Source: Vermamoeba vermiformis (taxonomy: Eukaryota). From it: a stretch of 64,000 bases of DNA. The stretch's first letter is position 1, and every line of letters starts with the position of its first letter. This document shows, in pieces, positions 17,291 through 63,430 of this stretch. Position numbers and translations under genes: made by a program. The notes under the pieces were generated by a model. It was not told the origin of the DNA. It ran no database searches and was given only the letters and a program-made list of their open reading frames with translations. The DNA lies in contig JBEWZL010000179.1 in the NCBI GenBank assembly GCA_045837725.1, positions 558,001 through 622,000 of the forward strand. Reading direction: 5' to 3'.

Positions 17291-19937
17291 TCAAACTTGT
17301 TTTTGCACAACTGTTTCCTCAGGAGTGAATTCTGCATCTTGGAAAACTGGTGCAAAACCAAAGTACGACTGATATATGGGTGACACTATTGCACTTGCTT
17401 CCAATACACTGGCACGCTTGGTCATTTCCTCAGCCTCTGTCTTAGCGTCTTCTGCACTTTTCTTTTGGGTCAATATCTCTAGCACTGCTTCAACTGCCTT
17501 CTCCATTTCCACTTGTTGTGCCTCTGTTCTACTTGACAGTCTAACAAGCTCAAGTTGTGGAATAAAGGCTGTAAGTTCACTTAAATTTGGTTGTTTTGCC
17601 TTGTCCACAGCAGAAATCATAGCGTCGTGGAGCCCCTGCATAAATGAATAATGGCACTCCAAATTATTAATTAACATACCTGTGCAGTTTCAGGCACTAC
17701 AGAAGCTAACCCAATAAAGTAGAAATTTGGAGCTTTGAGGACAGTCAATGCATTGTTTGCAACCTTGGGCCCATTGAACTTTGATACATCAGTTAACTGA
17801 ATACAAAAATCAATATCATACCTTTCCTTTGTTTTGTTTGGCCTGGAATCCAATAAAAATATCTTGACCATTCAGTTTGGCAGGCAACACTATGTCTGCA
17901 AATTCAGATGACTTCCCATCAATTGTGATGACTTGCTTCTCCCCAATTTCTTTAAGAAGGGCAGTGTTAGCAGTACTAAGTTGCTCAGTTAGCACTACTA
18001 CACCGTTCAGAACCACCTGCATTGTAAATGAGTGTTTGCAGTAAGTCTAATTAACTCCTACCTTAGCAGTTTGAAGTTCGGCAGGCAAATTGGTGCAATT
18101 GAAAATATCTCTCAGTTCAACCTCTGTACTTCCTTCACTCACCAACTTGTATCTTGCGTAAATACTTGCAGCTGCTGCATGCTCAAAGCATTTGCCTTTG
18201 ATGTTACCATCTTCAACTGAGCAGTTGGTATGCAGAATTAGTGTGCTTAGTGAAATATCAAATGGTTTCCAATGCTTAGAAGTCACAGTAGTTTGTAACA
18301 GAGCCAGGGGCTTGAAAACATCATTGTAGGAGTAAAGAAAGGGTCGAGTGTACTTCTTTGTATTTTCATCAATTTTAGTCCACTGAGTCAGATAGCCTTC
18401 TTCTTCCAAAATTTGTGGTTCCAAATCTATATCAGAAATCTTTTCTTTGATTTTCATTTGCCAACAAAGTGCTGCTTTAATGTCCAGTAGTTCAATTGCT
18501 TGCTCAATCCTCTTTTGTTCTTCTGCACTCGTGCAATTTTTCAATTTGTCATTTAACAAATCTGAGGATGTGGCACTGGGGAAGAGACCTTCAAGTCTGG
18601 CTTCTAAAGAAGCTGAAACGTCTTTCAGTTCTCGTTCAAGGTCGTCTAATACAAATAATTGTCTTGTTGATGTAGAAATTGCATTCTTTGTGCTATGGTA
18701 ATCCTCCAGCTTAATGAGATACGCAAGGGCAACTTCCATCATAATTTCAATTCCTCGTGGTAAACCAAAAGCTCTGTAAAATAGCTTCACAAGAGTTTTA
18801 GCTGTTTGATCATGCAAGACATCTGCCTGAGTTGAGTCTGTTGTGGGAGTCTTGAACAACGATTTGCCCAAGTACTGCTTAGCTATTACATCCAAGTATT
18901 TTGCATTAAGTAAATTCTCCATTGAGGCTCTAACTAGTTCATAGCTTGTTGCGGTTTTAGGAAAACTTCCGGGAACAATTGTGCCAGTAACCATCCAAAA
19001 AGCTGCACTATTGCTAAGTTCAAGTCTTTTTACAGCAGCATCTCTTAGCAATAAGTAAATAAGATCCTCTGTTTGTGTGCCTGCAGATCTTTTGCTGTAA
19101 TACTACCATGAAATTAATAAAGTCTGGAGAATTATTGAAACTTACTTGACACTCATCAATTCCAAAGATGAGCAGATTTCTGTCAATGCCAGATACATCA
19201 AAAGGGTACTTTGTTGGTGGTTTGCAGAATTGGTCAACACATGCATTGAATAGGTCAACACATTCACGAACTCTATCAAACTTGTCTCCAATGAATTTAG
19301 CTGTAATAGTAAATGGCTGGCCTCTGAATATGACTTGTTTATCGCTGAATCGATCAAGTATGCTGTCTTTAATCATGTCACTGATTGCTGCAAATAAAGT
19401 AAGTAGTGTTTAGCGAATTAGCTGGACTTACAGTTCTTTTCAGATAGTTGTGAAGAAGAGCTTATAATAATCATTCGTTGCATGAAAACAGTCTTGTACA
19501 ATGCATTAACAAAGGCTTGTCGATCGGTTAATGTTCCTTTTACACCCCTCCAATTGCCGGACTAAAAATTTTTCAATGATCTGAGGATCATTAAGAGCAT
19601 GATAGCTCCATTCTATCAATAATCGAGTTTTGCCACTGCCAGGGTTCATTGTTTGAACTGCATAGGCTGGTTTTTGATTAGGATCTAGGAAGTTACTGTA
19701 TGCAGCCTGCAATAGTGCCATGACGATTTCCTCTCGATTGAGAAATGGTGCACGTGTGGGCGAACCAATCCATTCATATTTGTAAGGTGACATATTCGGC
19801 AACGGGAACAGCAATTGTTTGCCGTTGATGTGAAGAGTTAGAACTTCTTGTGTTCGCAAAGAAGGAAAATCTGCGACAGTGAGCTTTTGCGCGGGTGTGT
19901 CTTGCGCTATCTCGGTCTTGTCCTGTGGAAACGCCAT
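17291..19937 (-). CDS. P-loop NTPase (STAND/Crinkler CR-NTPase-like) fused to putative PD-(D/E)xK nuclease, copy A; apparent +1 frameshift near 19545
   Basis: Walker A NPGSGKT, Walker B LLIFGIDECQ, GLPR motif. C-terminal GKCFEH...FADIVL...IGFQAK. Five GT-AG introns splice in frame. Homology to copy B requires removal of one base near the GGGG run at 19545-19548. Confidence 0.75.
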
Positions 19938-20330
19938 TTTGGAAGAGGTGAAATAAGCTGCATGAAAGATCAGCGCGTGACAAACTGGATTTCAGGCCAA
20001 CTACTTTACCTGCGGTCGGAGGTTTGTTCCGTAGAGATTTACGTGCAATTAAAGGTTTATTAATGATCTGGGTGCCTGATAAAATATATTATTACAATAA
20101 AAATAATATTTGAATAGTTAGATATAAAATTAAATTAATTAATTCATCCGCGCTATCTTTGGATTTAAATTCTATCGCAAAAAATTAACCTATATTTGTT
20201 GAACCCAAATTATTGGTTTGCAAATGCAAATATCAAGAGTCTTACCTAATCCGAACACCTTCGCCGGCGAGAGAGGCCTCTTGGTGAGGCCAGTCTTGAT
20301 TATCGAGGACAAAAAATGCCTAAGCATAAG

Positions 20331-22128: not shown

Positions 22129-23580
22129 ATTCTGTTCAACGCATCATCGCGGATCGTCTCAGCGCGACCGACACAAATATCACGTGACATTGTCGTGAAG
22201 TCCCACGCAAGTTGAAGTTGTTTGCGTGCAAATCCTCTATTTGCCAAAATAGGAAATATTGATTCGTCGAATTGTTGTCATCGCCGTCTCGTAACTTTTT
22301 GAATTGGTCAGAGGCCTCGATGAGATCGCCTGATTGGCAAATAAATTTCTAATGCCGACTACGTATCTCGTAGCCCAATCTAAAGGCACTGCAGGTTGAA
22401 TCACGAGCAACGGATCGACTGGATCGTGCGCACCCACTTCGGCCCAGTGCGGAATTTTTTCACCAGCCCTTGCGTTAATGATCACAGTAGCGGCTAAATA
22501 TACGCCAGTATCGGTCCATCCATTTGAACTGATGTCGTTGAACTTGGCCAACAACCGACTCATCACGCTGAACCCATCAAGTTCGTTCCAATACTGCATG
22601 TTCCAACTCCCTCCGCCTTTGATGGGAGGCATTCTATCAGCAGGTAGTGCCAGCCTTAATCCAGTGGCACTCGTTTGGTCTTGTATAGTGTAATCGTCGG
22701 ACGGCCACGGCAGCGCCAAGTTGCTCTCGGGCGGGTTCCAATCCGGCACCATCAGCAAGGCAATCAAGCTCACGAGGAGTAGAACCAATGCTGCTACTGC
22801 TAACACGATGAATCCAAATTGAACAGCTATTATTCCGCGCGATTTTTGATCGATGCTGTCGTCATTAGCGTAAAGTGAAATGATCGGTGAGATCCGCAGC
22901 GTGTACACGATCAAAACAGCCAAAGCTATCAAAATATTATAAGAATGATCGTTAATAGATATTATGCAACTTACCTATTTGAATAATAACGGCTATAACA
23001 GAGAATGCAATATAAGTTTGGATTGTTCGCCACATCCACTCCCAATCTTCGTTAACTTCGCCCGATGGCTCAACAAAGAATCCCTGAGAGTATTGTTATC
23101 ATATATCACGTATATCCGTTTGTATTTGCATACCTTTAATTGGCTGGGAACGTACCACATGACTACAATATTAATAATACAAATGAATAGATCGCGGCCA
23201 AAACATGGCCTGACATGCGATGACGCATAAACACAAACCTAAATAATTGATTAATATAATGCTATTATTTATGATAGTTTACTTACCAAGGCACGCAAAG
23301 GTGCAGTTTAAAAATAGTTCGAGGGTCATTTTCATTTCTTTTAAATAACGCGTTTTAATGTTAAAAATAGCATTAAAATATCTCAATATGCATAAATAAC
23401 TTACTGATATTTTTTTTAATTTAGTTTGTCGCGCTAGCAAGTCTGACGAAATGATCAGATCGTCTTCTTCGACTCCAACATCAAAATCATTGTAGTCCTC
23501 CGGCAAATCTTAAAGAGCTCGATGTCTTCATCTTCCTCATGGAAGGTGTAGCTCATTCGTGCAGTCGTTGTGCAGCATCT
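22124..23580 (-). pseudogene. Truncated copy of the membrane-anchored hydrolase gene
   Basis: Matches 33016-34660 with internal deletions and frameshifts (~22240-22340, ~23320). The whole catalytic half is missing. Confidence 0.88.
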
Positions 23581-24957: not shown

Positions 24958-27704
24958 TTACTTATTGGACTTCTTTGAGTGTAAAGCTTCCTTCTCCTGA
25001 CTAACCCTGGCTGAACAACCAAGCTCCTTGTCTCCAAAAGCAGATGCAAATCCAAAGTAGGTTTGGTAAATTGGGGATAAAATGTCTTTTGCAGACAAGA
25101 TACTGACTCGTTTGGTCATTTCTCTCACTGCCTTCTCTGCTTCAGCCGTGCTTTGTTTTGGTTCTAGTTTCTCAACTAAATTTACCAGCTCCTCACACAA
25201 TGGGATAAGCTTTTCTAGGTCGTGCATTGCTGATTTCATTGCTGTTTGCAGGTCTTGCAGTTCCACTTCAATTTTGTCTAATGGAAGAGCAGCCCTCGCC
25301 TTGGCTTGTTTTTTTGCAATTGTGATCATTTTTGCATGTACCTAGGATGGAGATTAGGCTGGTAACAGTGTCTGATCTGAATTCTTACTGTTGCTGCGCT
25401 TTGAGGTACAACTTCTAACCCTACAAAGTAGAAGTTTGGAATTTGAAGAACAACCAAAGCATTCTCAGCAGCTTTCATCAAGTTGAGCTTGAATTTCATT
25501 AGACTATAATAACAAAACTAATGACATACTGATCCTTTGCTTTGTTTTGTATGGAAACCAATAAAGATGTCACTGCCATCCATCTTTGCAGGCATGAGTA
25601 CATCAGCAAACTTAGATGATTGTTCATCAATGGCAATAACTTGTTTTTTTGCAGTTTCTTGCAAGATTGCTGCTGAATTGCCATTGAATTGCTGCTTCAG
25701 TACAACTACTCCCTTTAAAGTCACCTGAAACTCAATCAGACATTTCAAACATGCCAAGGGCTATTGGACTCTATGCTTACCTTAGCAGTGTGAAGCTCTG
25801 CAGGTAAAGTCTTGCAATCAAAAATGTTCTGCAATTCAACTTCAGAAGTACTATCTGCCTGGCTTGCCAAAATGTAGCATGCATAAATACTTGCTGCTAT
25901 TGCATGTATAAAACTTCTGCCTCTAGTCTTGCTGTTGTCAAGAACATTTGAGCAAAGGGGATGAATAGTGAGCATGCTATATGAGATATCAAATGGCTCC
26001 CAATGTTCAGAGTGCACTGTGCTCTGCAACAGTGACAAGGGTTTGGTTGCATCTACATGTGAGTGCAGAAATGGTCTGGTGTACTGCTTTTTGTTCTCAT
26101 TAATCTTTGCCCACTGAATTAAGTACCCTCTTTCTTCTAATACTTGAGGTGCCACTTCAAGATGGGGGAGGTTTTCTTTGATATCAAGTGGCAAACAAAA
26201 CGCTGCTTTAATGTCCAAAAGTTCAAGTGCTTGGGATACCAGCTTTTTTTCTTCTGCGGTGCATCTTTGCATTCTGGCCTCAATTTCAGGAGTAGTTGCA
26301 GAATGTGGGAATTCTTTGGCCAGTCCTTCATCCAATGTGTTTGAAATTCCTTTTAGGTAATTTTTCACCTTTTCAGGATAAACATCAGTACAGTTAAGCC
26401 ATTTGTTCATTGAGTAGATTTTCTCTATGTCCACCAGGCCTTTGTATGCAACTTGCAATAAAATCTCTATTCCTCTTGGTACACCAAAAGCTTGATAGAA
26501 CAGTCCAATGAGGATTTTGGCTGTTTGTTTGTGTAGGGCACTAGTACATTGAAGTGATTAATTTAACATACAAGTAAAAAGTTGTTACCTTGAAGTAGAG
26601 CTTTGTACTTCTGTATTTGGTAAGCATTTGCCAAAATATTGTTCTGCAATGGTGTTCAAGCAAGTTGCAGAGAGCAGATTCTCCATTGAAGCTTTGATCA
26701 AGTGGTAACTGCTTCCCTTGTCTTCATATCTCCCTGGTACAATTGTACCAGTTACAAGCCAAAAATAGCTGGAGTTTCTAAGTTCTATTCTTGCTGTAGC
26801 AGCAGAGCTCAGTACCTTGTAAATAAAGTCATCTTCTTTGGTGTCAGCTTTGGATTTGTTACTGCAAACCTGCCAAACATAGTTAGATGAGTATTGGAGT
26901 GATTTGATTACTTGGCATTCATCCAGACCAAAGATGAGCAGCCTCCTTTCAACTGTATCAACTTCAAATGGATACTCTGTTGGTGGATCACAGAACTTGT
27001 CAACTAGAGCACCAAATAGATCAATAAACTCTGCTACACTGCCAATAAAGCTATTCTTCCAGGCTGTGTTGATTTTGAGTGTTTTTGCTTTGAAAGAGAC
27101 TTTTTCATTTGCAAATCTAGCCATTATATTGTGTTTAATGATTGCCTTAAGGACTAACAAGGATAAGCATGCAAACCCTCAGTGGTGGGAACTTACTTTC
27201 ACTTGGATCTGACTCAACTGGCAAGTTTTCTGCATTCATGATCAGGATTTGTTGCATGAAAGCTGTTTTGTACAAGGCATTGATAAAGACTTTTCGATTC
27301 AATTCTGTTCCATCAACATTGCCTGCCAATAAAAACTCTTGAACAATCTCAGGATCATTGAGAGCATGGTAGATCCATTCTATCATGAGACGAGACTTTC
27401 CACTGCCTGGATGCATAGTTTGAACTGCATAAGTTGGCTTCTTATTAGGCTGGGAAAAATTGTCGTATGCAGCTTGCAACATTGCTGAAAGAATTTGCTT
27501 TCTGTTGAGAAATGGTGCGCGCTCTGAAGATCCAGTCCATGTTGCTTGAGCATCAGTGCTCATGTCTGGCAAAGGGAATGGCAAAATCTTATTGTTGATT
27601 TTAAGCTGAAGGACCGTTTTGGTTTGAAGGTAACGAAAATCCTCAGGTTTTTTCATTTGCAGTTTTATGTCTTGGCTTCTTTTAGAAACCGTTGGAGCTG
27701 CCAT
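24958..27704 (-). CDS. P-loop NTPase + nuclease-like protein, copy B; reading frame intact
   Basis: Walker A HPGSGKS, Walker B LLIFGLDECQ, GVPR. C-terminal GRSFIH...FADVLM...IGFHTK. Six introns, five at positions comparable to copy A. Confidence 0.8.
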
Positions 27705-28205
27705 TGTTTGCCTCGTAATTTTTGCAGACGTGAAATAGCCTTTTGGGAACGTTAATTTTTTTAATGTCTGAATCCCATCGTAATCTTACCTGGGCAATGC
27801 GTAGCTCTTTCGTTCAATTTTAGCAACGGGGGAACTCCTAGATTTAATTATTAACCCACGAAAAAGAGATCGAATAATTTTTTTATCTCTTTATAAATTA
27901 TTTTAGTTCTACGTTATAGAAAAAACAAATGGTCGATCGGCGCTTCTATTATTCTTTAACGAGTTTTAAACAAAATCTTACCAAACGCTTTTTTCATTGT
28001 CGACTGCAACGCCAGTTTAGCGAGCCCAGCCCTAATGGGCAATAGTACACGCCCAAGCATACCTTTTTTAAATTATTGCAATGATAAATAATTAATTGCA
28101 AGCGTTGTGTTTGTGAGTTCACAAAACGGTGCAAATAAAACAGATCTCGAGAACGAAAATTTTGTAATCAAGATTATCGCGCGTGGTCGCGGTAAAAGTT
28201 TATGA

Positions 28206-31279: not shown

Positions 31280-34200
31280 TTAATATTTTTCGGGACATTT
31301 TTCTCGCACGCAAGGTCCATTAGAGCAATATTGTCTTATTATTCCTTCTTTCAAAAAATCTCGGATCTGGTTTTGCACCTCAGGTTCTCTGTTCATTAAT
31401 GTTAGCATACCAATTCATTTTTATGGTCATGATTACTGTTACCTTCTCGGGCACTCGTGTGTATCGTATATTTTAGGTGGCGCAGTATTATTGAACGGTT
31501 CCCAAGGTACATTTTCGTAGCGCCACTGAGCGATGCCAGATCCGTAGAAATCTCCTTTATGCTCTAAATATTACCGTATTAGAAAATTATATGGTACAGA
31601 GGGCTCCTTTAAATCATACCAGGCACACCAAATATAGGTCTAACTTGAGGACCGACATTGGATGCGTTGTACGCACGCGCCATTATTTCAGCGCCCAAAT
31701 AGGATACTTGCGCATCGCCGAAGGCCACTAAGCAAGTTAATATTAGATGATATAGACTATTTTAGCCCAAAAGATGCTTACTTTGTAACAAGATCTGTTT
31801 CTGAGCCATGCCAGGTGGAGGGTTTGTAATAGAGCTCATCCAACCAGAAGGCTCGCCTTGGTCCCATAATGGCTGCATCAGAGCTATAACGACTAATTGG
31901 TGCGTCCAAGTATAGAATTGATAGCTCAAGAGCTGTTGGTACCGCGTAAAGTCGACGGATCGAGGTAAAAGAACGGAGTAAGGGCCACCAGGAACGCCTA
32001 GTAATATATATATTAATAATGTACACGATAAATAACATCGATTTAAGACGATTTGTAACAGAATTTAATTTTGATGTGGATTTGCTTACCTAAAACACCG
32101 CGCTTCAAGTCTCGTGAACTTGCGAAATAAGCGGCACCAACAATACCACCCTGCGAGTTACCATAATATCCTACCGGCGTATCTTTCGAAATCAACGGTA
32201 CGTTGGCCATGTACAGCGCTGAGTCTTTGGCGAGCATCTCTTTCATGAATCGCAACATGACTGATTTGAATACAAAGCCTTGCAACGTCATTTCAGGCAG
32301 CGAAACAAAATTAGACATGTCGCTCATCAGCCACTTGGCGACGATAGGCACGTCGTGTTTTGCCATGCCGTACCAGTCCATCGCTAACAGGACGTAATTG
32401 TAGTTGTTGGAAATACGTCGTAAATGACGCGTCATTGCCTCGGAGCGACTTCCTAAAAAGGAAAAAATTGATCAGATCCCGTTCAAATTTTGCATTTTCA
32501 TTTTTATCTAAAAGTAATTTTATGCCTTAATATTTGCTAATATTTTTAGGAATTAGGCATTCAGAGAAACAAAGATTTTTAGGAAATTTCATATACGCGT
32601 ACCGAACAAGCCGTGGCCATACTGCAAGATCATTTCCGCTGGTTTGTTGCTGAGTTTCAACGAGCACGGCACACGAATCAAAAACTGCGCTTTTTTCGTG
32701 AACAACGGCTCTAACTTGGTAACTCGCTTGCCATCGACACGCGGCAGAATTGAACCGCGCTCCATACTTGACAAATAATACGGTGCATTGATTTCACCTA
32801 ATCAAATTAGAATATTAATAATTTGATTATGAGCTAAAACCAAGCTATTTTTCGGCGGAAAATGTTCGAATAAAAAAAAGAACTGATTTTGGTTTGAGCT
32901 CCATTTCTTAAAATAATATTTTCTTTTTGCGTACCGTGAATAGTCCTGGCCATCACATCAGTAGTATTTCCTTCGCAAGAATCTTCTTCAATCAAATGAA
33001 TTTTGTACGTCACGTCTTCAACTCTATTCAACGCATCATCGCGCATATTTTCAGCGCGACCGACGCAAATATCACGTGACATTGTGGTGAATTCCCACGC
33101 AAGTTGGAGTTGTTTGCGTGCAAATCCGCCGTTTGCCAAAATAGGAAAGACTGATTCGTCAAAGTGCTGTCGTTCAGGGGTCTTGTCACCATCGTCATCG
33201 CGCAACTTTTTGAACGCGTCACTGGCCTCAATGAGATTGCCTGATTTGGTTACTAAATTTCTGATGCCGACTACGTATCTTGTGGCCCAATCTAACGGCA
33301 CTGCAGGCAGAATGACGAGCATTGGATCGATCGTGTCATGCGCATCGACCTCGGCCCAATGCGGAATTTTTTCGCCAGTCTTTGCATTAATGATCACTGT
33401 AGTTGCATTTGCAGCCATATAAATTCCGATATCGTTCCAGGGAATTAATCCTGACGAGCTGATTTCACTGAATTTGACCAACAGCGGACTCATCACGCTG
33501 AAGCCATCAAGTTCGTTCCAATACTGCATGTTCCAGCTGCCTCCACCTTTGATGGGAGGCATTCTATCAGCAGGCAGTGCCAGTCTCAAGCCAGTAGCAC
33601 TCGTTTGGTCTTGCACGGTGTACTCGTTAGACGGCCACGGGAGTGCCAAGTTGACATCGGGCGGGTTCCAATCAGGCGCGACCATCACTAAAGCAATCAA
33701 GCTGATAAGAAACAGCACGAAAGATGCTACAGCTAGAACAGCAAATCCAAATTGAACGGCCACTACCCCGCGAGATTTCCGATCGATTTTGTCGTCATTT
33801 GCATAAATTGTGATTAACGGGGAGATTCGCAGTCTGTACACGATCAAAACAGCCAAAGCTACCTTAACATTAGGCAAAAGTAAGAATAAGGGTATATTAT
33901 ACGACATACCTATTTGTATAATAACGGCAATGATAGAGAACGCAATATAAGTTTGAAGCGTCCGCCACATCCACTCCCAATCCTCGCTAACTTCGCCTGA
34001 AGGCTCGAAAAAGAATCCCTTAATTTAATATTAGTATATCTATGCTATTACTATGTGTTTTTTCGTACCTTCAATTGGCTAGGAACGTACCACATAATTA
34101 CAATGTTATAAATACAATTTATAAATAAATAGATCGCGGCCAAAACGTGACCAGACATTCGATGACGCATAAATACAAAACCTGCATATTTAATTAATAT

Positions 34201-37497: not shown

Positions 37498-40400
37498 TTA
37501 CTCGTTTGCAAGTGCTCGTACAATTTGTTCAATGCTGGGCCGAGACTCATTCGATGTATGCCAACAGTCTCGCATAATACTAGCTAACTGCGTTGGACAG
37601 TCGGCAGGTATGACAGGTGTCAAACCGTTGTCTCGGATCTGTAGCCCAACTTCGATCGGATCCAACTCCAAATGTGGCTCTCTTCGTGCCAAAATTTCGT
37701 ACATTAGAATTCCGAATGACCAGACATCTAAAAAATATCTCCGTTCAGTGAAATGATTTATCAAAGAAATATCAAAAATGACGACTGGATCTACCTGACT
37801 TGACGGAGTATATTCTGCTCCTTAATGATTCCGGAGCCATCCACCTGATCGGACCTAGCTCCGATTTAGTTGTTCCGTGCAAGTTTTGATCGTCAACGAG
37901 TCTCGATAACCCAAAGTCAGTCAATTTTGGTTCGTTGTGGCTCAATAAGACATTTCTGGCAGCTACATCTCGATGCACTATATTATGGGAATGAAGGTGC
38001 GCTAGTCCTTTCGCGACTCCAAGCATCCATTGCCATTTTTGGTTCGGTGAAATTTCGACGGATTTGTCCTCCAGCACTGTCTGCAAAGATCCTCCGGCAC
38101 AATACTCGATAATTAATATGATGCTGTGGGTCTCTGGGTGCACGCTGAATCCAAACAATTGAACGACATTGGGATGTGGTCTCATTTGCACCATCAATTC
38201 TAATTCACCAATCACCGTCGAGTGCGCTTCAGTCATGCTAACTTTGAGTGCCACAACGGTGTTTTTCCATTTGCCTTTGAATACTTGTCCGCTACCACCT
38301 TGCCCGAGTTGTTCTTCAAAAGTAAGTTGCTCGAACGGTGTGAACCACTCTCCGTACTTGGTGGCGAGGCCAATGGTAGTTGACTGAGCTATTTTTCTTC
38401 TCTTGTTTCTTTTGACCAATAGCACGGCGAGAACAACAGCTCCAAAAACCACGACTCCAACAGGCACCACTATCGCTGCAACAATTTCGCCCGTTGAAAT
38501 TCCAGTTGGTTCATTGCTCATGTCTGGTGTCTGAATTGGAACTGTCTGTGGTGTCGTGTCAAAATTTGACAGTAGTTTGGTGACATTTAACAGCATGACT
38601 TCGTCAGTGTAAAATCCGAGTGTTGGGTGTCTGCCACCGGCAATCATAACCGTTCCATTGTCTAACGTTCGAATAATTGTTGGATTGTAGTCGAGTTTGA
38701 ACGCTGTGCTGTTCCATTCGCCGTGAGAAGGGATGCTCGTGTACGTCAATTTATCGTCTCCGCCAAATGTCAATAACAAGTTGTGTGCTACTGCTATAAA
38801 TAGTCTTGTTTGAGTCTGGGGCAATACAAAAACGTTCCAAGAACTAGATACGTAATCATAGCTCAGCACGTTGAAAAAAGTACCGAAGTTGAACGGATCA
38901 TTCTCGAAAGTTGACATGTACACTGCTCTCGTATTGTCATTGTACATTTGATGCAACCATGCTGCTGCTGTCTGATCGTTGCTAATGGGCGTGATTGAGT
39001 CTCTAGTGATCTTCATCAAAGTGCGCGCCGACTGCAAAAAATATCCGACGTCGTTGTAGATAGGAATCGTTGCAAATGAGATATAGTTGCCGTATGTTAA
39101 TAACAAACTCTGCTGCTTTGTTGTTGTAGCTCCAGAAGTCATATTGATGAAGTAAAATATCCCTGATAATGGTGGTATTAAGACTAACGTGTCTTCAAAG
39201 GCAGTCGTTTGACAGAATCCATTAAATCTCATCGAAAAGTTGTACGGCACTGAGTCCTTCCACTCGCCAGTAGTATAATCATAAACGTCGATTTTTTGAT
39301 ATTGTGTCTGAATTGGCCCGACGGCAATCGCTGTGCCATCACGTGACTGAACCAAAGGGATAAACGGCTGTGGCTCGAGCCATACACTGTCTGTAATATT
39401 GATCCAAACAACTCCCATAGTCAAATCAATCACGTCTCGTCCAATGGCAAATTGACCAATGATGGCGGGCTGTACAACTGCGTATGAGGTTGCAACGTCG
39501 TTGTCAAAAATGATACGAAAACCACTAGGAGCGAAGGCTGTGAATGTCGTGCTATCAATGGCAACAATTGACACTATTGATCCGAACCTTGGTGATGTCT
39601 GTGTTGTGACACTTTTGGTGGCTGGATTGTACTTGTAAAATTGTTCTCCGTCGTACAAAATGTATTGGCCAAAGCTCGGAGCGATGAGTTGAATCGTACG
39701 TACTTCCACGTACGTCCAAGAGCCATCATATATAGCAAGTCTATCGTTCTTGATCAGCACTATTTGATCGCTGACGCTGAAAGCATTGAAAATTCCATCG
39801 CTGTCGTAGGTCGTGTTTGAGGTGTTGGAAGTCCAATCAAAGATCGTGAATCCATCCGATTTCACTATGAATGTTTCATGGCCGAGAGTCACAGAATATA
39901 TAATATCGCTCATCATGATTTCGTTCCAGTGAGATGTTCCGAGCCGATGAAAAAGACACCTGTCAGCGAGCCAAACTGAAACGGTATCGGAAGCAACAGT
40001 GAAGTTGAAATTAACGTTGGAGTTGCTAAGAGTTGTTGCATTGTTGAACTTTAATAGCTTCATAGTAGTGCTGTTGAATATCCATGCGCCAGAATACAGA
40101 TCCAGCGTAGTTTGATTGATGCCTCCAATTCCGACGATCAGGTCTTCGTGCACGAATAAAATTCCACTAGATAAGCCTTGCATCCACGTTGTTAATAGTT
40201 CTGAATGGCTCCAAGTCTTGTTGTTAATGTCGTAGAAATCAGCGGAGAAGTTTCCAAGCACCGTCAAAATTTCGTTGTGAATCGACACCTGAATCGCCGA
40301 CCGAACAGTTGGGCCACATCCTTCTGTCCACTCATAACTATGAGTCTCTGGTGCATATAACTTGGTGCAGTTTTCATGGGTAAAACCTCCAGCAAAGTAA

Positions 40401-40678
40401 ACGTGCGATCCGGATTTGACAGGGGAAACAAAACCTCGGGCAGACGGTAACTTCAAGGGCTTCTCCCACGTCTTGTTGATAGTGTTGTATACGTCTATCT
40501 TATCTGTTGCTATGAGATCGTGGTATTCGTAGCCTCCAACGAAATAAATGTTGTGTTCGACTTGGATAGAGGACACAGCTGTTCGTTTGGAAGACATTGC
40601 CGTCTTCTGCATCGTTACTTGGCTAAATGCTGATGTAGCATAGAGTAGGCATAGAAACAGAATGCTAATGCTTGCCAT
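37498..40678 (-). CDS. Receptor kinase with Kelch-like ectodomain, one TM helix and a tyrosine-kinase-like catalytic domain
   Basis: Signal peptide; Kelch-type IYFVGG/VYFAGG/VMIAGG repeats; TM IVAAIVVPVGVVVFGAVVLAVLLV; GQGGSG, VALK, HRDVAARN, DFG, PIRWMAPE. One intron in KS/DVWSFG. Confidence 0.92.
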
Positions 40679-48012: not shown

Positions 48013-49852
48013 ATGGCTTCAAGACGACACTTACATAACCACCCTTTGGTTCGTCACAACAACGCTCAGTCGTTTTACAGCCAAGATGCATTCGGTAATT
48101 GATCATATATCACTTTTACCACGAACTATATTATTTTAATAATTTATTGCTTTTTTCCATCCTCCAATTGCAATTTTTAACGTCAGATTCAATTTCACTA
48201 ATCTGTCCCATCCACAGTTTGCAATTTGTGCAACAAGAGTTGCCGTGGAAGAGTATTTCATTGCAGTTCTTGCAATTTCGATGCCTGCCCAAGCTGCATG
48301 AGCACTCATCTGCGAAACAGTAAGTCTTGATCGAGTCCGCTTCGTAAAATTATGCCATAAAAAATAATTAATTTTCCATTACTCGAAGAAAGCAATAATT
48401 GTGCACTGAAGAGTGGTACACGTTGCTAAACCTCATATTTTTAGACGCGAAGCACGTGCATCCGTTGGCAAGATACACGACTTCTCCCTATGGTCCTAAC
48501 AAGCCTTCCATGGCCGTTTGCGACACCTGCCGCGCCACCATTAAGCACGGAGAAGAAGCTTATCATTGCGACACTTGCAGAGACTACGACAACTGCCGTA
48601 CTTGTTACAACAAGTACCAAAGTACGTACTTGCAAATTCGTTTATGACGCACTTGACATTAATACTTCGCTAGTGCCTCATCAACACCCCTTGAGATATT
48701 TCGATCGAGCACCGTACAACTCTCGCAGCTTCATCTGTGACTACTGCTCGTTCAGCTACGGCGAAACTCCTGGCTACCACTGCGATGCTTGTGGTAACTT
48801 TGACGCGTGTCCCACGTGCTACAACAAGTTCGGTAAGCAGCTACTACTATAAAGCTGATATATCGTTGACAAGCACGCGCTAACATTGTATCGTTGCAGC
48901 TACTGGCCCCTCGCCGATGCCCAATGCTTATCCCGCACCAGGTCAATACCCACCTTCGTACCCACCGACTGCAGGAGTTCCAGGAGCCTACCCTTCAAAC
49001 CCGTTGCCTGGAACGTACCCCACGCCCACACCCAGTGCGTACCCTTCGCAAGTAGTGCCACCTCCTGGTGGTCACCCTCCTGGTATCCAAGCACCTCCTC
49101 AACCAGTCAACATCAGCGTCAACTTGGCTGTAAATCAACCTCCTCAACAGCCTGGCCAGTATCCCCCTCAAACCCAACCGGGACAATACCCACCTACTCA
49201 ACCCGGCCAATACCCCTCACAACCAGGATACCCTTCTCAACCTGCACCGCTCAACTTCCCGGGCCAACCTGGTCAATACCCGCCTCAACAAGGCCACCCT
49301 CCCCAACAAGGCGGATATCCTCCTCAAACTCAACCAGGCCAATATCCTCCTCAGCAAGGTGGCTACCCTCCACAACAGCCCGGTCAATATCCTCCCAATA
49401 ATCAGCCTTTGAACTTCCCCGGTCAGCCTGGTTACCCCCCACAACAAGGCGGATATCCTCCTCAAACTCAACCGGGTCAATATCCTCCTCAACAACCGAG
49501 CTATCAAACGGGACAATACCCACAAACTCCAGGCTATCAAACACATCCACCCGGTCAATATCCGCCACAACAACCCGGTCAATATGGCGCGCAACCAGGC
49601 CAATATCCTCCTCAACAAGGTGGTTACCCTCCACAACAGCCCGGTCAATATCCTCCACAAGGTCAACCTCAGCCTGGCCAGTATCCTCCGAGCAACCAGC
49701 CATTGAATTTCCCTGGCCAACCTGGATATCCTCCACAACAAGGCGGATACCCTGCGCAACCAGGACAATACCCGCCTAATCCTCAAGGCGGCTATCCTCC
49801 ACAACAGCCTGGCCAATACCCGCCGTCTAATGGCAAGCCTACTCCGTATTAA
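48013..49852 (+). CDS. Three ZZ/DC1-like zinc fingers followed by a long Pro/Gln/Gly/Tyr low-complexity domain
   Basis: Three HxHPL...CxxC...(F/Y)HCxxC..(F/Y)DxCxxC units across exons, then ~310 aa of [14 protein letters not shown] repeats. Confidence 0.85.
49140..49830 (+). repeat. Coding imperfect tandem repeat ([14 protein letters not shown]; higher-order unit marked by PLNFPGQPG x3)
   Basis: Visible in the translation of ORF 48917-49852 and in the DNA. Confidence 0.9.
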
Positions 49853-57355: not shown

Positions 57356-58964
57356 ATGCGAATGAAGGACGTAGCTTTGGCGCTGCTATTCTCGCAGGTA
57401 GTTTTGTGTGGTAAGCAAATCCAACATCAATTGAAAAAATCGAATTTCGTATTATTACGAAAGCTTAATTTATAAATAATAGTTACGCAGCTAACTAAGC
57501 TGCAATTTCTATTAATACTATTTTATATTTATTTTTCCATTTTTAATATTTTTAATATTTCCTTAGGATTTGTAGCAGGAGGTCTGTTACAACAAGATCC
57601 GATATTAGAAACACTGCTGAAAATTACGGAAATGGAAACAACGGCCAGATTGCTTTACATACACAATTGACCAGATGCGCAAAATTGCTGATAATTACAA
57701 CCAAGGAGATTACCCTCATTTTGATAGCTTTAAAAATGACGATATTCGATTACAAATTCGCAAAAATGTGTTGTCGATGTGCGATCAAATGCTTATTCTA
57801 TCAAACAGTGGATAGTAAGTCGATCAGATCCGATCCAATCAACTTATTTTGGTTCAGCGAAACTGCTCCGGGGCGAATAACAGATTTAAGACAATACAAT
57901 CGATTTATTTAGACGATGAAGTGTTTAACGCGAGAAGAATTCCAAAGTATCATCACGCAACCACATCCATCAAGCACGTAAAGCAAATTTTAGAGAGCAA
58001 GAAAATTAAGGCTAATCCCGCCGTTCTTTATGGCGCCTGGACGTCTAGTTGTAAGTAATGAAATTTCCGGATCTATCTATCGACTATTGGTCGGCTTGTA
58101 ATTTATTTAATGCAGAAGATCTTTTCTTTCAGTCACTTAATTTCATATTTATAGGTTTCTATTATACCCAATGGCTATTTGCATTTTCATCGGAGCTAGA
58201 ATTGCCAGTATCAGAAGTTTCTAAGGAAAGTCATAACAGTGTAACTTGTTGGGAACTCGGACGATTGCACGACAGTACGTAGCTATACATTTAATAGTAT
58301 TTTATTAATATTATTGAAGTCGTATTTTGGAATACTAGCATTGAATTGGTTGCCTGGGCCGTTCCTGCTGACCAAATGAACGAAACTTTGGCCTACATCC
58401 AGACTCTCGACAACTCAACTTCCAGTTACTATTCTAAAATAGGATTAACTAACGATCAAATGATATTAGAACGACATTTGATTACTTTGGCGCAGATTTA
58501 TTCCTCAGATCGAGCCAACGCGTGAGCAGAATAAAGATCTAACCTTGTACAAAATTGACTAATGAAATGCCATTATTAGGTTCCTAAGTCGTGCATTGGC
58601 TGTTAATACCACTTTGTATTCTCTAGGTGCAAACTGCTCTTTAGGAGAAGGTATAAATGTTGCATAAAATTTCCAGTACAAAAGAAAAAAATTAAATATT
58701 TATTAATTTTATTGAACAGTTGTGGCATACGAAGATCTAGATAATCCCTTTCAACTGAGATATGGAGTGTGTACGAATAACACCAGCCAAGATATGCTTC
58801 CAGTATTGAATTACAATGCGGTCACCAGATCCAACAAGATCTCTATGCGAGCGCGGTCAACAGTTCAAACGACCAATATGCTCCTCAAGGATTTATCTGC
58901 AGTTAATGATGCTATGAAAATGGTGCAACAAATTGTGGACGGGCAACTAGTCACAAAACTTTAG
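57356..58964 (+). other. Uncharacterised, probably secreted protein gene with frame disruption(s) in exon 2 (pseudogene or sequence error)
   Basis: Signal-like MRMKDVALALLFSQVVLCG and several GT-AG-bounded exons. Exon 2 (57568-57815) cannot be read through in a single frame that joins both neighbouring exons. Confidence 0.5.
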
Positions 58965-59177: not shown

Positions 59178-59988
59178 TTAACAAACTGTACGAACCATAT
59201 CCATGCCACGAGAATAACTGCAATTATTTCCAGCAGGTACTGGAAATGTCAATTGAGATCCGTTCGCTAACTGAACAAAGATCCAAAACGGTTTTGATTG
59301 TAAAAAGCCGCTCACTCCCATACGAAATTCTTCGCGGTGGCAATTCGTGCTGACGAGATCCACTTCTGATTTGTCGTTGTACATCTGAGCTTGCGCGTTC
59401 GTCCAAAAGTCTGCGTATTTGATCGTCATATTAAACAGTAAGTTGCCCGAAGTGACTGCAAGTAAGTAAGAATTAATGCATATATATATTAAGTCTGTAT
59501 CAGATCCGCTTCAAAGTTTTTACGTACCGGATGCGAAAACATTTTGGATATTGACCCATTTAACGTCTGGTACACTTCGTAACACCGTGAATGGAATGTT
59601 CGCTGAGATCGCCGTAAATTCGTAACTATGACCTGTTGAAAGTTCGACCAAGTAGCCGTCAATCTCCGTCTGAGTAAAGGCATTGCCAGCCTCTGTTTAT
59701 TAAAATTAGCCATAATTCTATCGAAAAGCGGAAATTTATTGTCGGATCCGTACGAGTAACTATGAGATTTATGAGGATCTGCTTATCTATTGTAAACGAC
59801 AGCTGCCAATGGTTCGTAGTATCGGTCACGTTCAAAAAGTTGTTCTGGGTTTGGGGCGGCCAAGCTGGAAATACGAAGAACTCGCCAAAAGACGATGCCA
59901 CTTGAGCACCAGATTGCTCCGTATCAGCTCGGACTAGCGCTAATAAGGCCACGCAAGTAGCGAAAAAAATTAAGTGAGATCTGGTCAT
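59178..59988 (-). CDS. Orphan secreted protein, family X copy 1
   Basis: Signal peptide MTRSHLIFFATCVALLALVRA, two introns, paralog of 61439-62211 (shared LRSVPDVKWVNIQN, YADFWTNAQA, GFLQSKPFW). Confidence 0.85.
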
Positions 59989-60330
59989 TATCAATAACAC
60001 GGTAATTGAATAGTAAACTTTTAACCCCAAAAGAGCATGATAAAGTACTCATAACTGAAATTTCCCCTTTCTAACGACGTTTTGATTTAGAAATTTTGCC
60101 TGCATCCGTCAACCGGAAGAGTTTTCGGTCGCTTGTTCAAACAAAACGGGTTTATCCGTCCGAAAGCCCTTCATTAGTCTAAATGTGAAGTGATTCGCTC
60201 ATCTAAGCGCGATATTTCTCCATTTAGTTCGATTAATTGAATGCCGTAGTTCTCGGCGGGATCAGATCGGAAAATTATTTAAAGAGTTGGAATCACTATT
60301 CTATTCTCATGCAACGACAAGAACGCAACG

Positions 60331-61181
60331 ATGAAGCTTTTGGTAGGATTATTACCGCTTCTAGGCTTATTTTGCGCGTGCCTGGCCAACGGAACAGATC
60401 CTTGCGCGAATCCCGCAAACCTTAACCAGATAATCAACTATCGAGAGACTACAGACCTTATTGAACATCTTTCTCTCTCCAATGTATTTAATATAACCGA
60501 TACAAGTGGCTGCTGCGTTCTCGAGAACTCTGTTTTAGTATTCTCTCAGAATAACAGACCTCGCTGTAAGTCCTATTGCGTTTATTTAATCATTAAGAAT
60601 TGACCAATACTATATTAGTGGGAGATGTGGCATTCCAAGTCGGTTGGCAAGCAAGGCTTTTCAATGTTTGTAATGGATCTGCAGATCCAAATCCGCTTTT
60701 GGTCTCCGTCCGATATCTACAGAATAACACTATCAATTTGGAAGTAAACGCTGATGATCAAACGACTAGTCTTGCTCCGTTTACTGCTCGTGGTAAGGAT
60801 GAAATCTTATTCTTTAGTATGGCAGATCCGTCGACTTACCGAATTACTATAGGAGAATTGCAATTAGCGAATACTACGGCTGTTAAACAATTCAATCTTG
60901 TAACAAAAAATAACTACGTATTCTCGCCTAGCGCCAAACCCTCCGCCCAGTTCCAAAGCGATTCAATCATAACTTTTTACTTCTCAGAACCCAATTGTCT
61001 TATACGCAGAAGACAAACAATATTACAAAGGACTGTTTACTCGCCGTTAATCGAGTTTTCTTTGGAAATTCTGAGCGGATCGACGATCCATTTTAGTTTA
61101 CCACCGCAGACGGCTTTTCTTGCCGATTATGAGCAAACCAAGTATTTCTTAGAACATTGTACTTGTTCTGTATCATTTTAG
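60331..61181 (+). CDS. Orphan secreted protein, family Y copy 1
   Basis: Signal peptide MKLLVGLLPLLGLFCACLA, two introns, paralog of 62576-63430 (shared DPC.N.AN, QNNRPR, VKQFNLVTKN, EHCTC). Confidence 0.85.
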
Positions 61182-61438
61182 TTAGAGATCTTTAAAAATA
61201 AACTCGAGAATAGTTAGATCCGGGACTGGCATTAAAATATTTGTACCGTTCTTGTCATCTTAACCAGGCCTAAAGCTTATAGTTAATAAGATAATAGTAA
61301 TCTGCATTATTTTGGTCATAAAAGTGTACAGCTTTGTCAAAAAAATGAAACCGAAGATTAATGTAGTTTACTGACCGTAGAAGCGGACAATTACGCGTAG
61401 TTAGTATTATTTATTTATTAAAAAAATCTGAAATGAAA

Positions 61439-62211
61439 TCAATTGCACACTGTACGGATCAGTTCCATGCTACGAGAATAGCTGCAATTATAGCCTGCTG
61501 GTACTGGGAACGTCAATCTTGGCCCATTGTACAACTGCAAGACAATCCAAAAAGGCTTTGATTGTAAAAATCCACCGGTTATCGAGCGGAAGTCGTCTCT
61601 GGTACAATTGCCTAGTTGATCTACCGCTTTATCGTTTTCCATCGAAGCTTGCGCGTTCGTCCAAAAGTCGGCGTAGTTAATGGTAAAGTTAAAATCAATG
61701 CTTCCAGGAACTGCATTACTAAATTAGAAATATATTTTTATTTTTATCATAAGACGTACCACGAACGAAAATATTTTGAATGTTGACCCATTTAACGTCT
61801 GGAACACTTCTTAACCACGTAAACGGAATGTCCGATAAAAATCCACCGAACTCGAAACTGTTCCCAGTCGTCAACTGTTCTAAATATCCGCTAATTCGTA
61901 TTACATTGTTTGTATTGCCGCTCTCTGCCACGATTAAGCATTAGTTGGGCGTAAGTCATGAGAGGTAGAAAATACAAACCTTGAACGGCCAAACTCATGC
62001 TAATCCCTTTATTCTGATTAAAGGATAACTTCCAATTGTTTGTTGTGTCCGTAATGTTTAACCAGCTGCCTGCAGTGGCCCAGATCGGAAAATAGAAATC
62101 TTCGTTGTAAGTCGATATCACTTCCGATTCGGATTGTTCGATAACTGCTGCCAGTATGATACCGACTAGCGCCAAATAGGCAGCCAATGCTCTGGGAGAT
62201 GATCTTTTCAT
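61439..62211 (-). CDS. Orphan secreted protein, family X copy 2
   Basis: MKRSSPRALAAYLALVGIILA; same two intron positions and motifs as copy 1. Confidence 0.85.
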
Positions 62212-62575
62212 TGTTACTATGAAAGCAATAATTACGATAAAAACCGAAACTTTTATGTCTTGCATTGATTGACAAATCAGGATTTGAGCCGATTTCAAGA
62301 CAAGACAGGTAGATTTTGTAGTAATTTGACATAAGAATTACGAGTAATTCGAAGATAGAACTAGCTATCGTAAATTTCAGCCACTTACTTCGGACTCACT
62401 CTATAATATATTAAATTTGCCGGCATTCTTTATCAAAATTGCGTTTGATATTATGTGCTAAAGAAATACACTTGAATTTTTTGCAATTTCCAACGGTATT
62501 GCTCCAGCGGTTGGAACGGGTTAGGGTATAAAAATTCGGATCAGACTTACAAATTAACCGAATCATAAGACTACA

Positions 62576-63430
62576 ATGAAGTGCCTAAATTTCTTGCTTA
62601 TAATTGCGCTGGTCCACTTGTGTCGCGCGAACGGATCTGATCCGTGTATAAACGCGGCAAATCCAGACCAGATCATAGAGTTTCGATACACGGAAGACGT
62701 CAGTGACTATCTTGGGCTAGATGGCGTGCGCAATGTGACCGATTCAACTGGCTGCCAAATCTTAGAGATTGACAGTATGTTTTTTACGCAGAATAATAGG
62801 CCACGCTGTAAGTGTTAATAATACTCTCGCATTTTGAGTCGTAATTAATTTACCGAGATTAGTTTTTGAAACGTTCTTTGCTGTTACTTTGAACGGAAGA
62901 CTCTTCGATATTTGTGGATCACAATCCAGTCCGCTCTCAGTTTCCGTGCGCCCAGCACGACTTAACGCCACAAAATTAGAAGTCAATGCCATCGACCAAA
63001 CCGCTATCCTTGGCCCTTTTGTGGTTCCAGGTCAGTTAAATTCATCGATCCGCATTTTTGAAAAAAAATTCGTGGAATTCTAATCTTAATAATTTTAGGG
63101 GGCCTAGAACTAGCAAACAATACGATCGTTAAACAATTCAATTTGGTGACCAAAAATACCTACATATTCTCGCCAATTTCCGAGCCAACCAACGCGTTCC
63201 AAAGCGACACAATAGCACCGTATTATTTCCAGGAACCGACTTGCACATCACGCCGCAGACTAACTGGGATGCTAAGAAGTGTTTCGTCACCGTTATTCGA
63301 GTTCTCTATCGAAATTTCCGGTGGACCGACGTATTTCTTTAGTTTGCCGGCAGGCACTAAATTTCAATCGTCATTCCAGCAGACCAAGTTTTTCTACGAG
63401 CACTGTACTTGCAGGACCTCAAGCGGATAA
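62576..63430 (+). CDS. Orphan secreted protein, family Y copy 2
   Basis: MKCLNFLLIIALVHLCRA; same intron positions and motifs as copy 1. TATA-like TATAAAA at ~62527. Confidence 0.85.

Follow-up and report, generated by a model that had tools for sequence, protein, structure and literature searches.

The present study describes a family of paired secreted proteins in the amoeba Vermamoeba vermiformis. In a stretch of 64,000 nucleotides (assembly GCA_045837725.1, contig JBEWZL010000179.1, positions 558,001 to 622,000 of the forward strand; hereafter the window), four intact genes lie in the order <X1 Y1> <X2 Y2>, each X gene head-to-head with its Y gene. There is very little doubt in our judgement that the pair is a module and that X and Y are homologous. 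Judged from sequence, X and Y are two subfamilies of one family, and the pair has been copied as a module. The paired barrel family is real, new and lineage-restricted, and a heterodimer of X and Y is a plausible, if unproven, mechanism for it.

BLASTP gave no significant match between X and Y. Profile-profile alignment matched the two classes with 99.0% probability (E 8.9e-18, 190 columns), and against the X profile 13 of the 14 mature Y sequences reached 11.5-61 bits, with reversed controls reaching at most 7.1; Y1 itself scored only 4.3 bits. Intron positions are also shared: of the genes examined, all 20 with an intron 1 have it within columns 143-148, and 18 of 21 have intron 2 in column 214. 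Cognate X and Y proteins are 14-22% identical. It was observed in a tree of 39 proteins (with X_C232 partial, and without the C56b pair, the C13 Y and the C57 gene) that X, Y and a third, Y-like class Z each occupy one side of a branch (100/98, 95/83 and 100/99), long branches being flagged. Class X has R117 and A148-D149-F150-W151 invariant across deep splits, and W61 and W124 are conserved in it together with W151 and R117. Class Y keeps the invariant polar residues P166, D173, R188 and R190, of which the last three are absent from class Z. The initial annotation had described X and Y as orphan proteins. This stands with respect to known families, as no Pfam family came over the cut-off (12 and 12 queries) and profile A6 found no PDB sequence at E<=10, but it does not stand between X and Y, which are paralogues with one predicted fold.

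The 43-Mb genome was searched with single proteins and the fetched stretches were then modelled, and the counts given here are lower bounds. At least 30 genes of the family exist in this one genome. At least 11 are X genes (two in the window, two in tandem on C287, two on C56, and one each on C211, C160, C109, C64 and C232), and all 11 face a Y gene head-to-head with start codons 342-539 bp apart. Since the arrangement recurs at nine further places in the genome, pairing is far beyond chance. Haplotypes or recent segmental duplication may account for some of the copies (C56a and C56b are 99-100% identical), and there are therefore about 7-8 independent pair lineages. The X gene on C109 is frameshifted close to the start. 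A twelfth Y gene, on C64 (about 157.5-158.5 kb), has kept its spacer while its X has been reduced to 12 codons, which reads as the loss of a partner caught mid-way. The remnant (L101:5325-5360) faces the intact Y gene, and the spacer is still like the C64 and C109 spacers.

Y-type genes also occur without X. Two solo Y genes with two introns lie on C287, where one faces a Rac-like GTPase gene, and on C13. Class Z consists of six intronless genes on C235 with no X nearby, five in a head-to-tail array and one single (L105:826-8202 and L103:4629-5351). The loss of both introns in Z may reflect a retrocopy origin, and the Z proteins could act as homodimers or by swapping partners. A distant intronless member of about 200 amino acids on C57 (L148:4330-4935) scores 41 bits over profile positions 1-160 and stops short of the last strand; it faces what we take to be an isocitrate-dehydrogenase-like gene.

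In three pair comparisons the synonymous difference was almost the same for X as for Y (0.75/0.73, 0.20/0.20 and 0.46/0.44), and the identity matrices of X and Y correlate, with a Mantel rho of 0.84 over 11 pairs and of 0.78 (p 0.002) over the seven non-recent pairs. The ratio of nonsynonymous to synonymous divergence (dN/dS) was 0.13-0.43 in the five of six cases where it was computable, and selection is evidently purifying, not diversifying. Codon bias is matched within pairs (rho 0.82, n=10). It is strongest in the C56 pair (0.88 and 0.86) and ordinary (0.39-0.70) in most pairs, including those of the window. The orthologues of the C56 pair fall into clusters with 13 and 15 members, of which many are spliced and full-length; this suggests that the pair is abundantly expressed. 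The spacer suggests co-expression of X and Y, and the signs of matched expression are indirect. Across eight spacers no 7-9-mer shared as a promoter motif rose clearly above shuffles. The pairs had been proposed to encode co-expressed obligate partners; the indirect signs agree with co-expression, whereas an obligate partnership could hold at most for X, Y-type genes being found solo as well.

All introns of the four genes, two per gene, are GT-AG, phase-1 and 49-72 nucleotides long. Among the sequencing runs listed none was on record as RNA. Contigs of run X1 (a run label, distinct from gene X1) come from a related strain, with the RNA origin of the run presumed, and for most of the strain contigs identity to the window is 90-99%. 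The run X1 contigs skip six of the eight predicted introns at the predicted length, namely X1 intron 2 (a 72-nucleotide skip, offset by 4 nucleotides), Y1 intron 2 and both introns of X2 and of Y2. Because Y1 exon 1 has a loose end at 60619 in these contigs, a seventh intron is supported, and X1 intron 1 is the only one of the eight without their support. In this run pair 1 was covered to a depth of 2-5 and pair 2 to 9-33, and run X2 covers pair 2 only; both carry little weight, depth being unfit for ranking. Raw-read runs X9 and X11 left the four genes almost without reads, and their matches to the DNA nearby were mostly below 90%, which makes that organism too distant to inform. For other pairs, spliced full-length orthologues are present in databases. 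GC-AG introns seem to occur, from sequence alone, as intron 1 of three X genes (L023:3110, L028:5702, L027:4781) and as intron 2 of Y_C232 (L102).

The N-termini of all four proteins are hydrophobic, the Kyte-Doolittle maximum over 11 residues being 2.6-3.1, and further along the chains no hydrophobic segment follows (maximum over 19 residues 0.65-1.16); the secretion signal is called by this hydropathy scan and not by SignalP. Each has 3-4 N-glycosylation sequons. Taken with the conserved Cys residues, these features suggest that both chains are secreted. X1 and X2 are 55% and Y1 and Y2 52% identical. The earlier description of the window was borne out in its gene order and start-codon spacing, its signal peptides without a transmembrane anchor, its two introns per gene and its duplication by modules, with both members retained and diverged. 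Cys parity matches in 10 of 12 X-Y pairs. The matches amount to about two independent events, two pairs disagree and the signal cleavage sites were placed by eye; an interchain disulfide may be taken as a lead only.

Table 1. Modelled genes and spacers of the two pairs (positions in the window).
Feature	Position	Strand	Exons or remark	Basis
Gene X1, 225 amino acids	59988-59178	-	59988-59754, 59692-59528, 59455-59178	gene modelling
X1/Y1 spacer, 342 bp between start codons	59989-60330		putative shared bidirectional promoter	
Gene Y1, 245 amino acids	60331-61181	+	60331-60565, 60619-60792, 60853-61181	gene modelling
Gene X2, 222 amino acids	62211-61439	-	62211-61980, 61924-61760, 61710-61439	gene modelling
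X2/Y2 spacer, 364 bp between start codons	62212-62575		putative shared bidirectional promoter	
Gene Y2, 243 amino acids	62576-63430	+	62576-62807, 62863-63030, 63099-63430	gene modelling

Outside this genome the family is thinly represented. When 1.84 billion representatives were searched with a profile, 28 proteins came up at E<=0.001, the longest of 281 amino acids; 27 of them were compared and all map to paralogues of this genome at 23-98% identity. The sole named sources were two transcriptome proteins of V. vermiformis in EukProt. Of 46 pattern matches in metagenomes, 4 were confirmed. One locus, seen on three of these contigs, has X and Y head-to-head with unchanged exon layout, and one 2.2-kb contig carries X and Y tail-to-tail, which fits the junction of tandem pairs and is uninformative on pairing. 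JGI clusters of X and Y have equal-sized longest contigs (2127, 2428, 364158, 364732), an indirect sign of linkage. Pattern scans confirmed 0 of 17 and 0 of 6 matches in viral contigs, and the scan of prokaryotic genomes 0 of 22. ESM Atlas gave no usable match for X or Y, and no fused X-Y form was found in the search. The haloperoxidase domain PF22778 had no match in this genome, but its control was silent too, which leaves this negative without information. Such a distribution suggests restriction to one lineage. In the literature searched, which takes in few of the subscription journals, no description of the family was found, nor any paper on secreted proteins of Vermamoeba-type amoebae.

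The structural models are almost all beta, with one barrel per chain in members of 217-282 amino acids. X and Y are each predicted to be a soluble 8-stranded barrel with long hairpin extensions, the strands reaching up to 24 residues. The strands have short hydrophobic faces and the long hairpins are polar, as would suit a soluble barrel. Foldseek against PDB gave no match at E<=0.001, and membrane barrels of the OmpA/OmpW type tie for the best fold match. The matches listed in the fold searches are barrels, and no pore-forming toxin was among them; an unlisted family, for example one of leukocidin or aerolysin fold, may still match. The complex prediction of P0002 (20-233) with P0003 (20-245) gave ipSAE 0.00 in both runs; it was made without alignments and with an uncertain partner fold, and counts neither way. 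Against BFVD, the two best viral matches of the X model were Tupanvirus ORFans, A0A6N1P1C3 (E 1.8e-4, template modelling score 0.35) and A0A6N1NGJ3 (E 6.6e-4, 0.38), with root-mean-square deviations of 13-14. Tupanviruses infect Vermamoeba. These are weak matches, possibly of generic barrel likeness.

Our best explanation of these observations, which as a whole is tentative, is that X and Y form a heterodimer with a hydrophobic ligand between the barrels. An ancestral secreted beta-barrel gene with two phase-1 introns would have undergone an inverted duplication, and the inverted copies would have diverged into the two classes. The head-to-head pair, on a putative shared promoter of 0.3-0.5 kb, has since been copied as a module. 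The X and Y chains would jointly enter the secretory pathway, and the two barrels would pack so as to enclose a lipid, a sterol or a prey metabolite, different pairs serving different ligands or conditions. The heterodimer by itself we consider fairly probable. Given a heterodimer, a ligand pocket at the interface is slightly favoured. X is never found intact on its own, Y sometimes is, and Z lacks the conserved Y residues, which fits X needing Y. An unfused relative in function of AttH or yeast Svf1, proteins with two barrels in one chain, would be expected to look like two homologous barrels expressed from one promoter.

Several observations weigh against this explanation. Matched divergence, matrix correlation and codon bias all follow from adjacency, so that every linkage statistic is expected from co-duplication alone and none demonstrates contact. 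Modelled members are single-barrel, whereas AttH, CrtC and Svf1 have two barrels in one chain, and neither Pfam profiles nor PDB sequences connect X or Y to these proteins. Genes of Y type exist without X (the two solo Y, the six Z and the distant member). The expectation that X and Y always occur head-to-head holds for the X genes and for the metagenome pair, but not for Y, whose homologues are found unlinked elsewhere. Physical binding and cognate specificity are what we infer.

X and Y could instead be lipocalin-like carriers that share their regulation but act independently, as monomers or homo-oligomers with a ligand of their own, the pair persisting only because a shared promoter is copied along with both genes. 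We hold this to be possible but unlikely. The solo Y and unpaired Z genes show that the barrel is kept without a neighbouring X, and mouse Abp partners are often expressed independently (PMC1187883). Independence would not explain the asymmetry by which intact X stands alone in 0 of 11 cases while Y is found alone, nor the class-specific invariant polar residues kept across deep splits, a set that Z lacks for class Y. It is improbable that the two chains are structural subunits of the cyst wall, glycocalyx or an extracellular coat, polymerizing in alternation through long beta-hairpins and disulfides. Secreted, N-glycosylated, Cys-containing proteins with such long strands would suit this role, and the codon bias and large clusters of the C56 pair suggest abundance; set against this, no Pfam carbohydrate-binding or repeat domain was detected and codon bias is ordinary in most pairs.

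Bi-component leukocidins are paralogous pairs, and a two-component antimicrobial or membrane-active system that kills or digests prey in phagolysosomes would resemble them. A paralogous secreted pair expanded into many variants speaks for such a system. The tie of OmpA/OmpW-type barrels for the best fold match also speaks for it, but every modelled X and Y protein is net acidic (-3 to -13), the short hydrophobic faces and polar hairpins suit a soluble barrel, and selection is purifying; this role appears quite improbable. Very improbable is a soluble pair for self/non-self or mating recognition with X1-Y1 versus X2-Y2 specificity, as in tgrB1/tgrC1. The layout is that of tgr, with duplicated head-to-head paralogues among unpaired members (PMC13648343), yet no modelled member has a transmembrane or signalling part, dN/dS is 0.13-0.43, and the near identity of strain contigs to the window differs from the unalignable tgrBC locus.

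The X-Y heterodimer with an inter-barrel pocket, if true, would link single-barrel calycins to fused double-barrel enzymes and lipid carriers, and would offer a ready set of cognate and non-cognate pairs. We regard as rather doubtful a further form, in which X-Y is a naturally split protein of AttH/Svf1 type with a ligand-binding or catalytic pocket at the interface, about a dozen cognate pairs with free Y and Z making a combinatorial extracellular repertoire. Such a repertoire would capture or transform lipids or bacterial metabolites, and would be a present-day example of the stage before fusion that has been proposed for decalin synthases. If the pocket is false, the family still adds a clean new example of genes being born and lost as modules, comparable to tgr and Abp. 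Amoebae of the Vermamoeba type are frequent in water systems and serve as hosts to bacteria and giant viruses. A strict rule by which X faces Y, in a secreted family with one pair apparently abundantly expressed, is of interest in this setting.

Other genes of the window were also observed. Directly upstream of X1 lies a multi-exon gene with a signal-peptide-like start (57358-58964, +); five of its exon frames had no Pfam match and its run X1 coverage was zero. A 968-amino-acid open frame (37772-40678, -) combines Kelch repeats and a Tyr/Ser-Thr kinase domain with a signal peptide and a transmembrane-like segment, and a similar frame of 1022 amino acids, starting with Kelch repeats, lies near the C64 pair (L028:747-3812). 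Duplicated P-loop-like (GSGK) proteins (18047-19991 and 25745-27785, -) and a duplicated membrane protein with a bacterial-looking extracellular part (22237-22974 and 32834-34024, -) had no Pfam match in the tested frames. A long Pro/Gly/Gln/Tyr repeat region (PGQYPP; 48884-49852, +) follows Cys/His zinc-finger-like frames.

Among known systems, the gene layout is already familiar from two. Dictyostelium tgr pairs are likewise head-to-head paralogues with a short common upstream region, a trait found in 11 of 11 X genes. Most Tgr proteins are transmembrane proteins with IPT/Ig repeats, and polymorphism among them is extreme, whereas X and Y are predicted single soluble barrels under purifying selection; Pfam, hydropathy and the barrel models gave neither IPT/TIG repeats nor a transmembrane segment as in TgrB1/C1. 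The analogy drawn in the initial annotation thus survives for the layout but not for the membrane anchor. The secretoglobin fold is small and helical. Mouse Abpa/Abpbg genes are head-to-head, encode paralogous secreted subunits and were duplicated mostly as pairs; they differ in being mammalian, under positive selection and of this helical fold, while the X and Y models are beta. Uteroglobin appeared at E 0.017 in two of 12 Pfam rows, for which no significance is claimed. Abpa and Abpbg subunits form heterodimers that bind lipophilic ligands (PMC1187883). The X-Y family is a member of neither group. From 8-stranded outer-membrane barrels (OprF/OmpA, OmpW, NspA, PagL), X and Y differ by eukaryotic secretion signals, sequons, disulfides and extensions beyond the aligned core, and nothing so far points to membrane insertion. 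Calycins are marked by a 3-10 helix cap, a Trp in the first strand and an Arg-Lys in the last (PMC2954199). Also close are the AttH-like double-barrel proteins, NE1406 (PDB 2ich), 25-phosphosteroid lyase (9fzn, apparently a double barrel from its length and aligned range), the decalin synthases Fsa2, Phm7 and CghA (7e5t, 7e5u, 6kbc) and kievitone hydratase (7a0q), together with Svf1, which was compared from the literature only. In NE1406 the two barrels come from a gene duplication, and the ligand is enclosed where they meet. In Svf1 ceramide is bound between two lipocalin domains (PMC10038888). For Fsa2 and Phm7 the active site lies between two lipocalin-like domains and the authors invoke lipocalin fusion or duplication (10.1101/2021.02.01.429105). 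Identity of X and Y to AttH-like structures is 3-10% with no sequence-level match, and the predicted arrangement is one secreted, disulfide-bearing glycoprotein barrel per gene in place of two barrels per chain. The X-Y pair is thus not claimed as a member of the AttH/CrtC/Svf1 group, but it may work like one.
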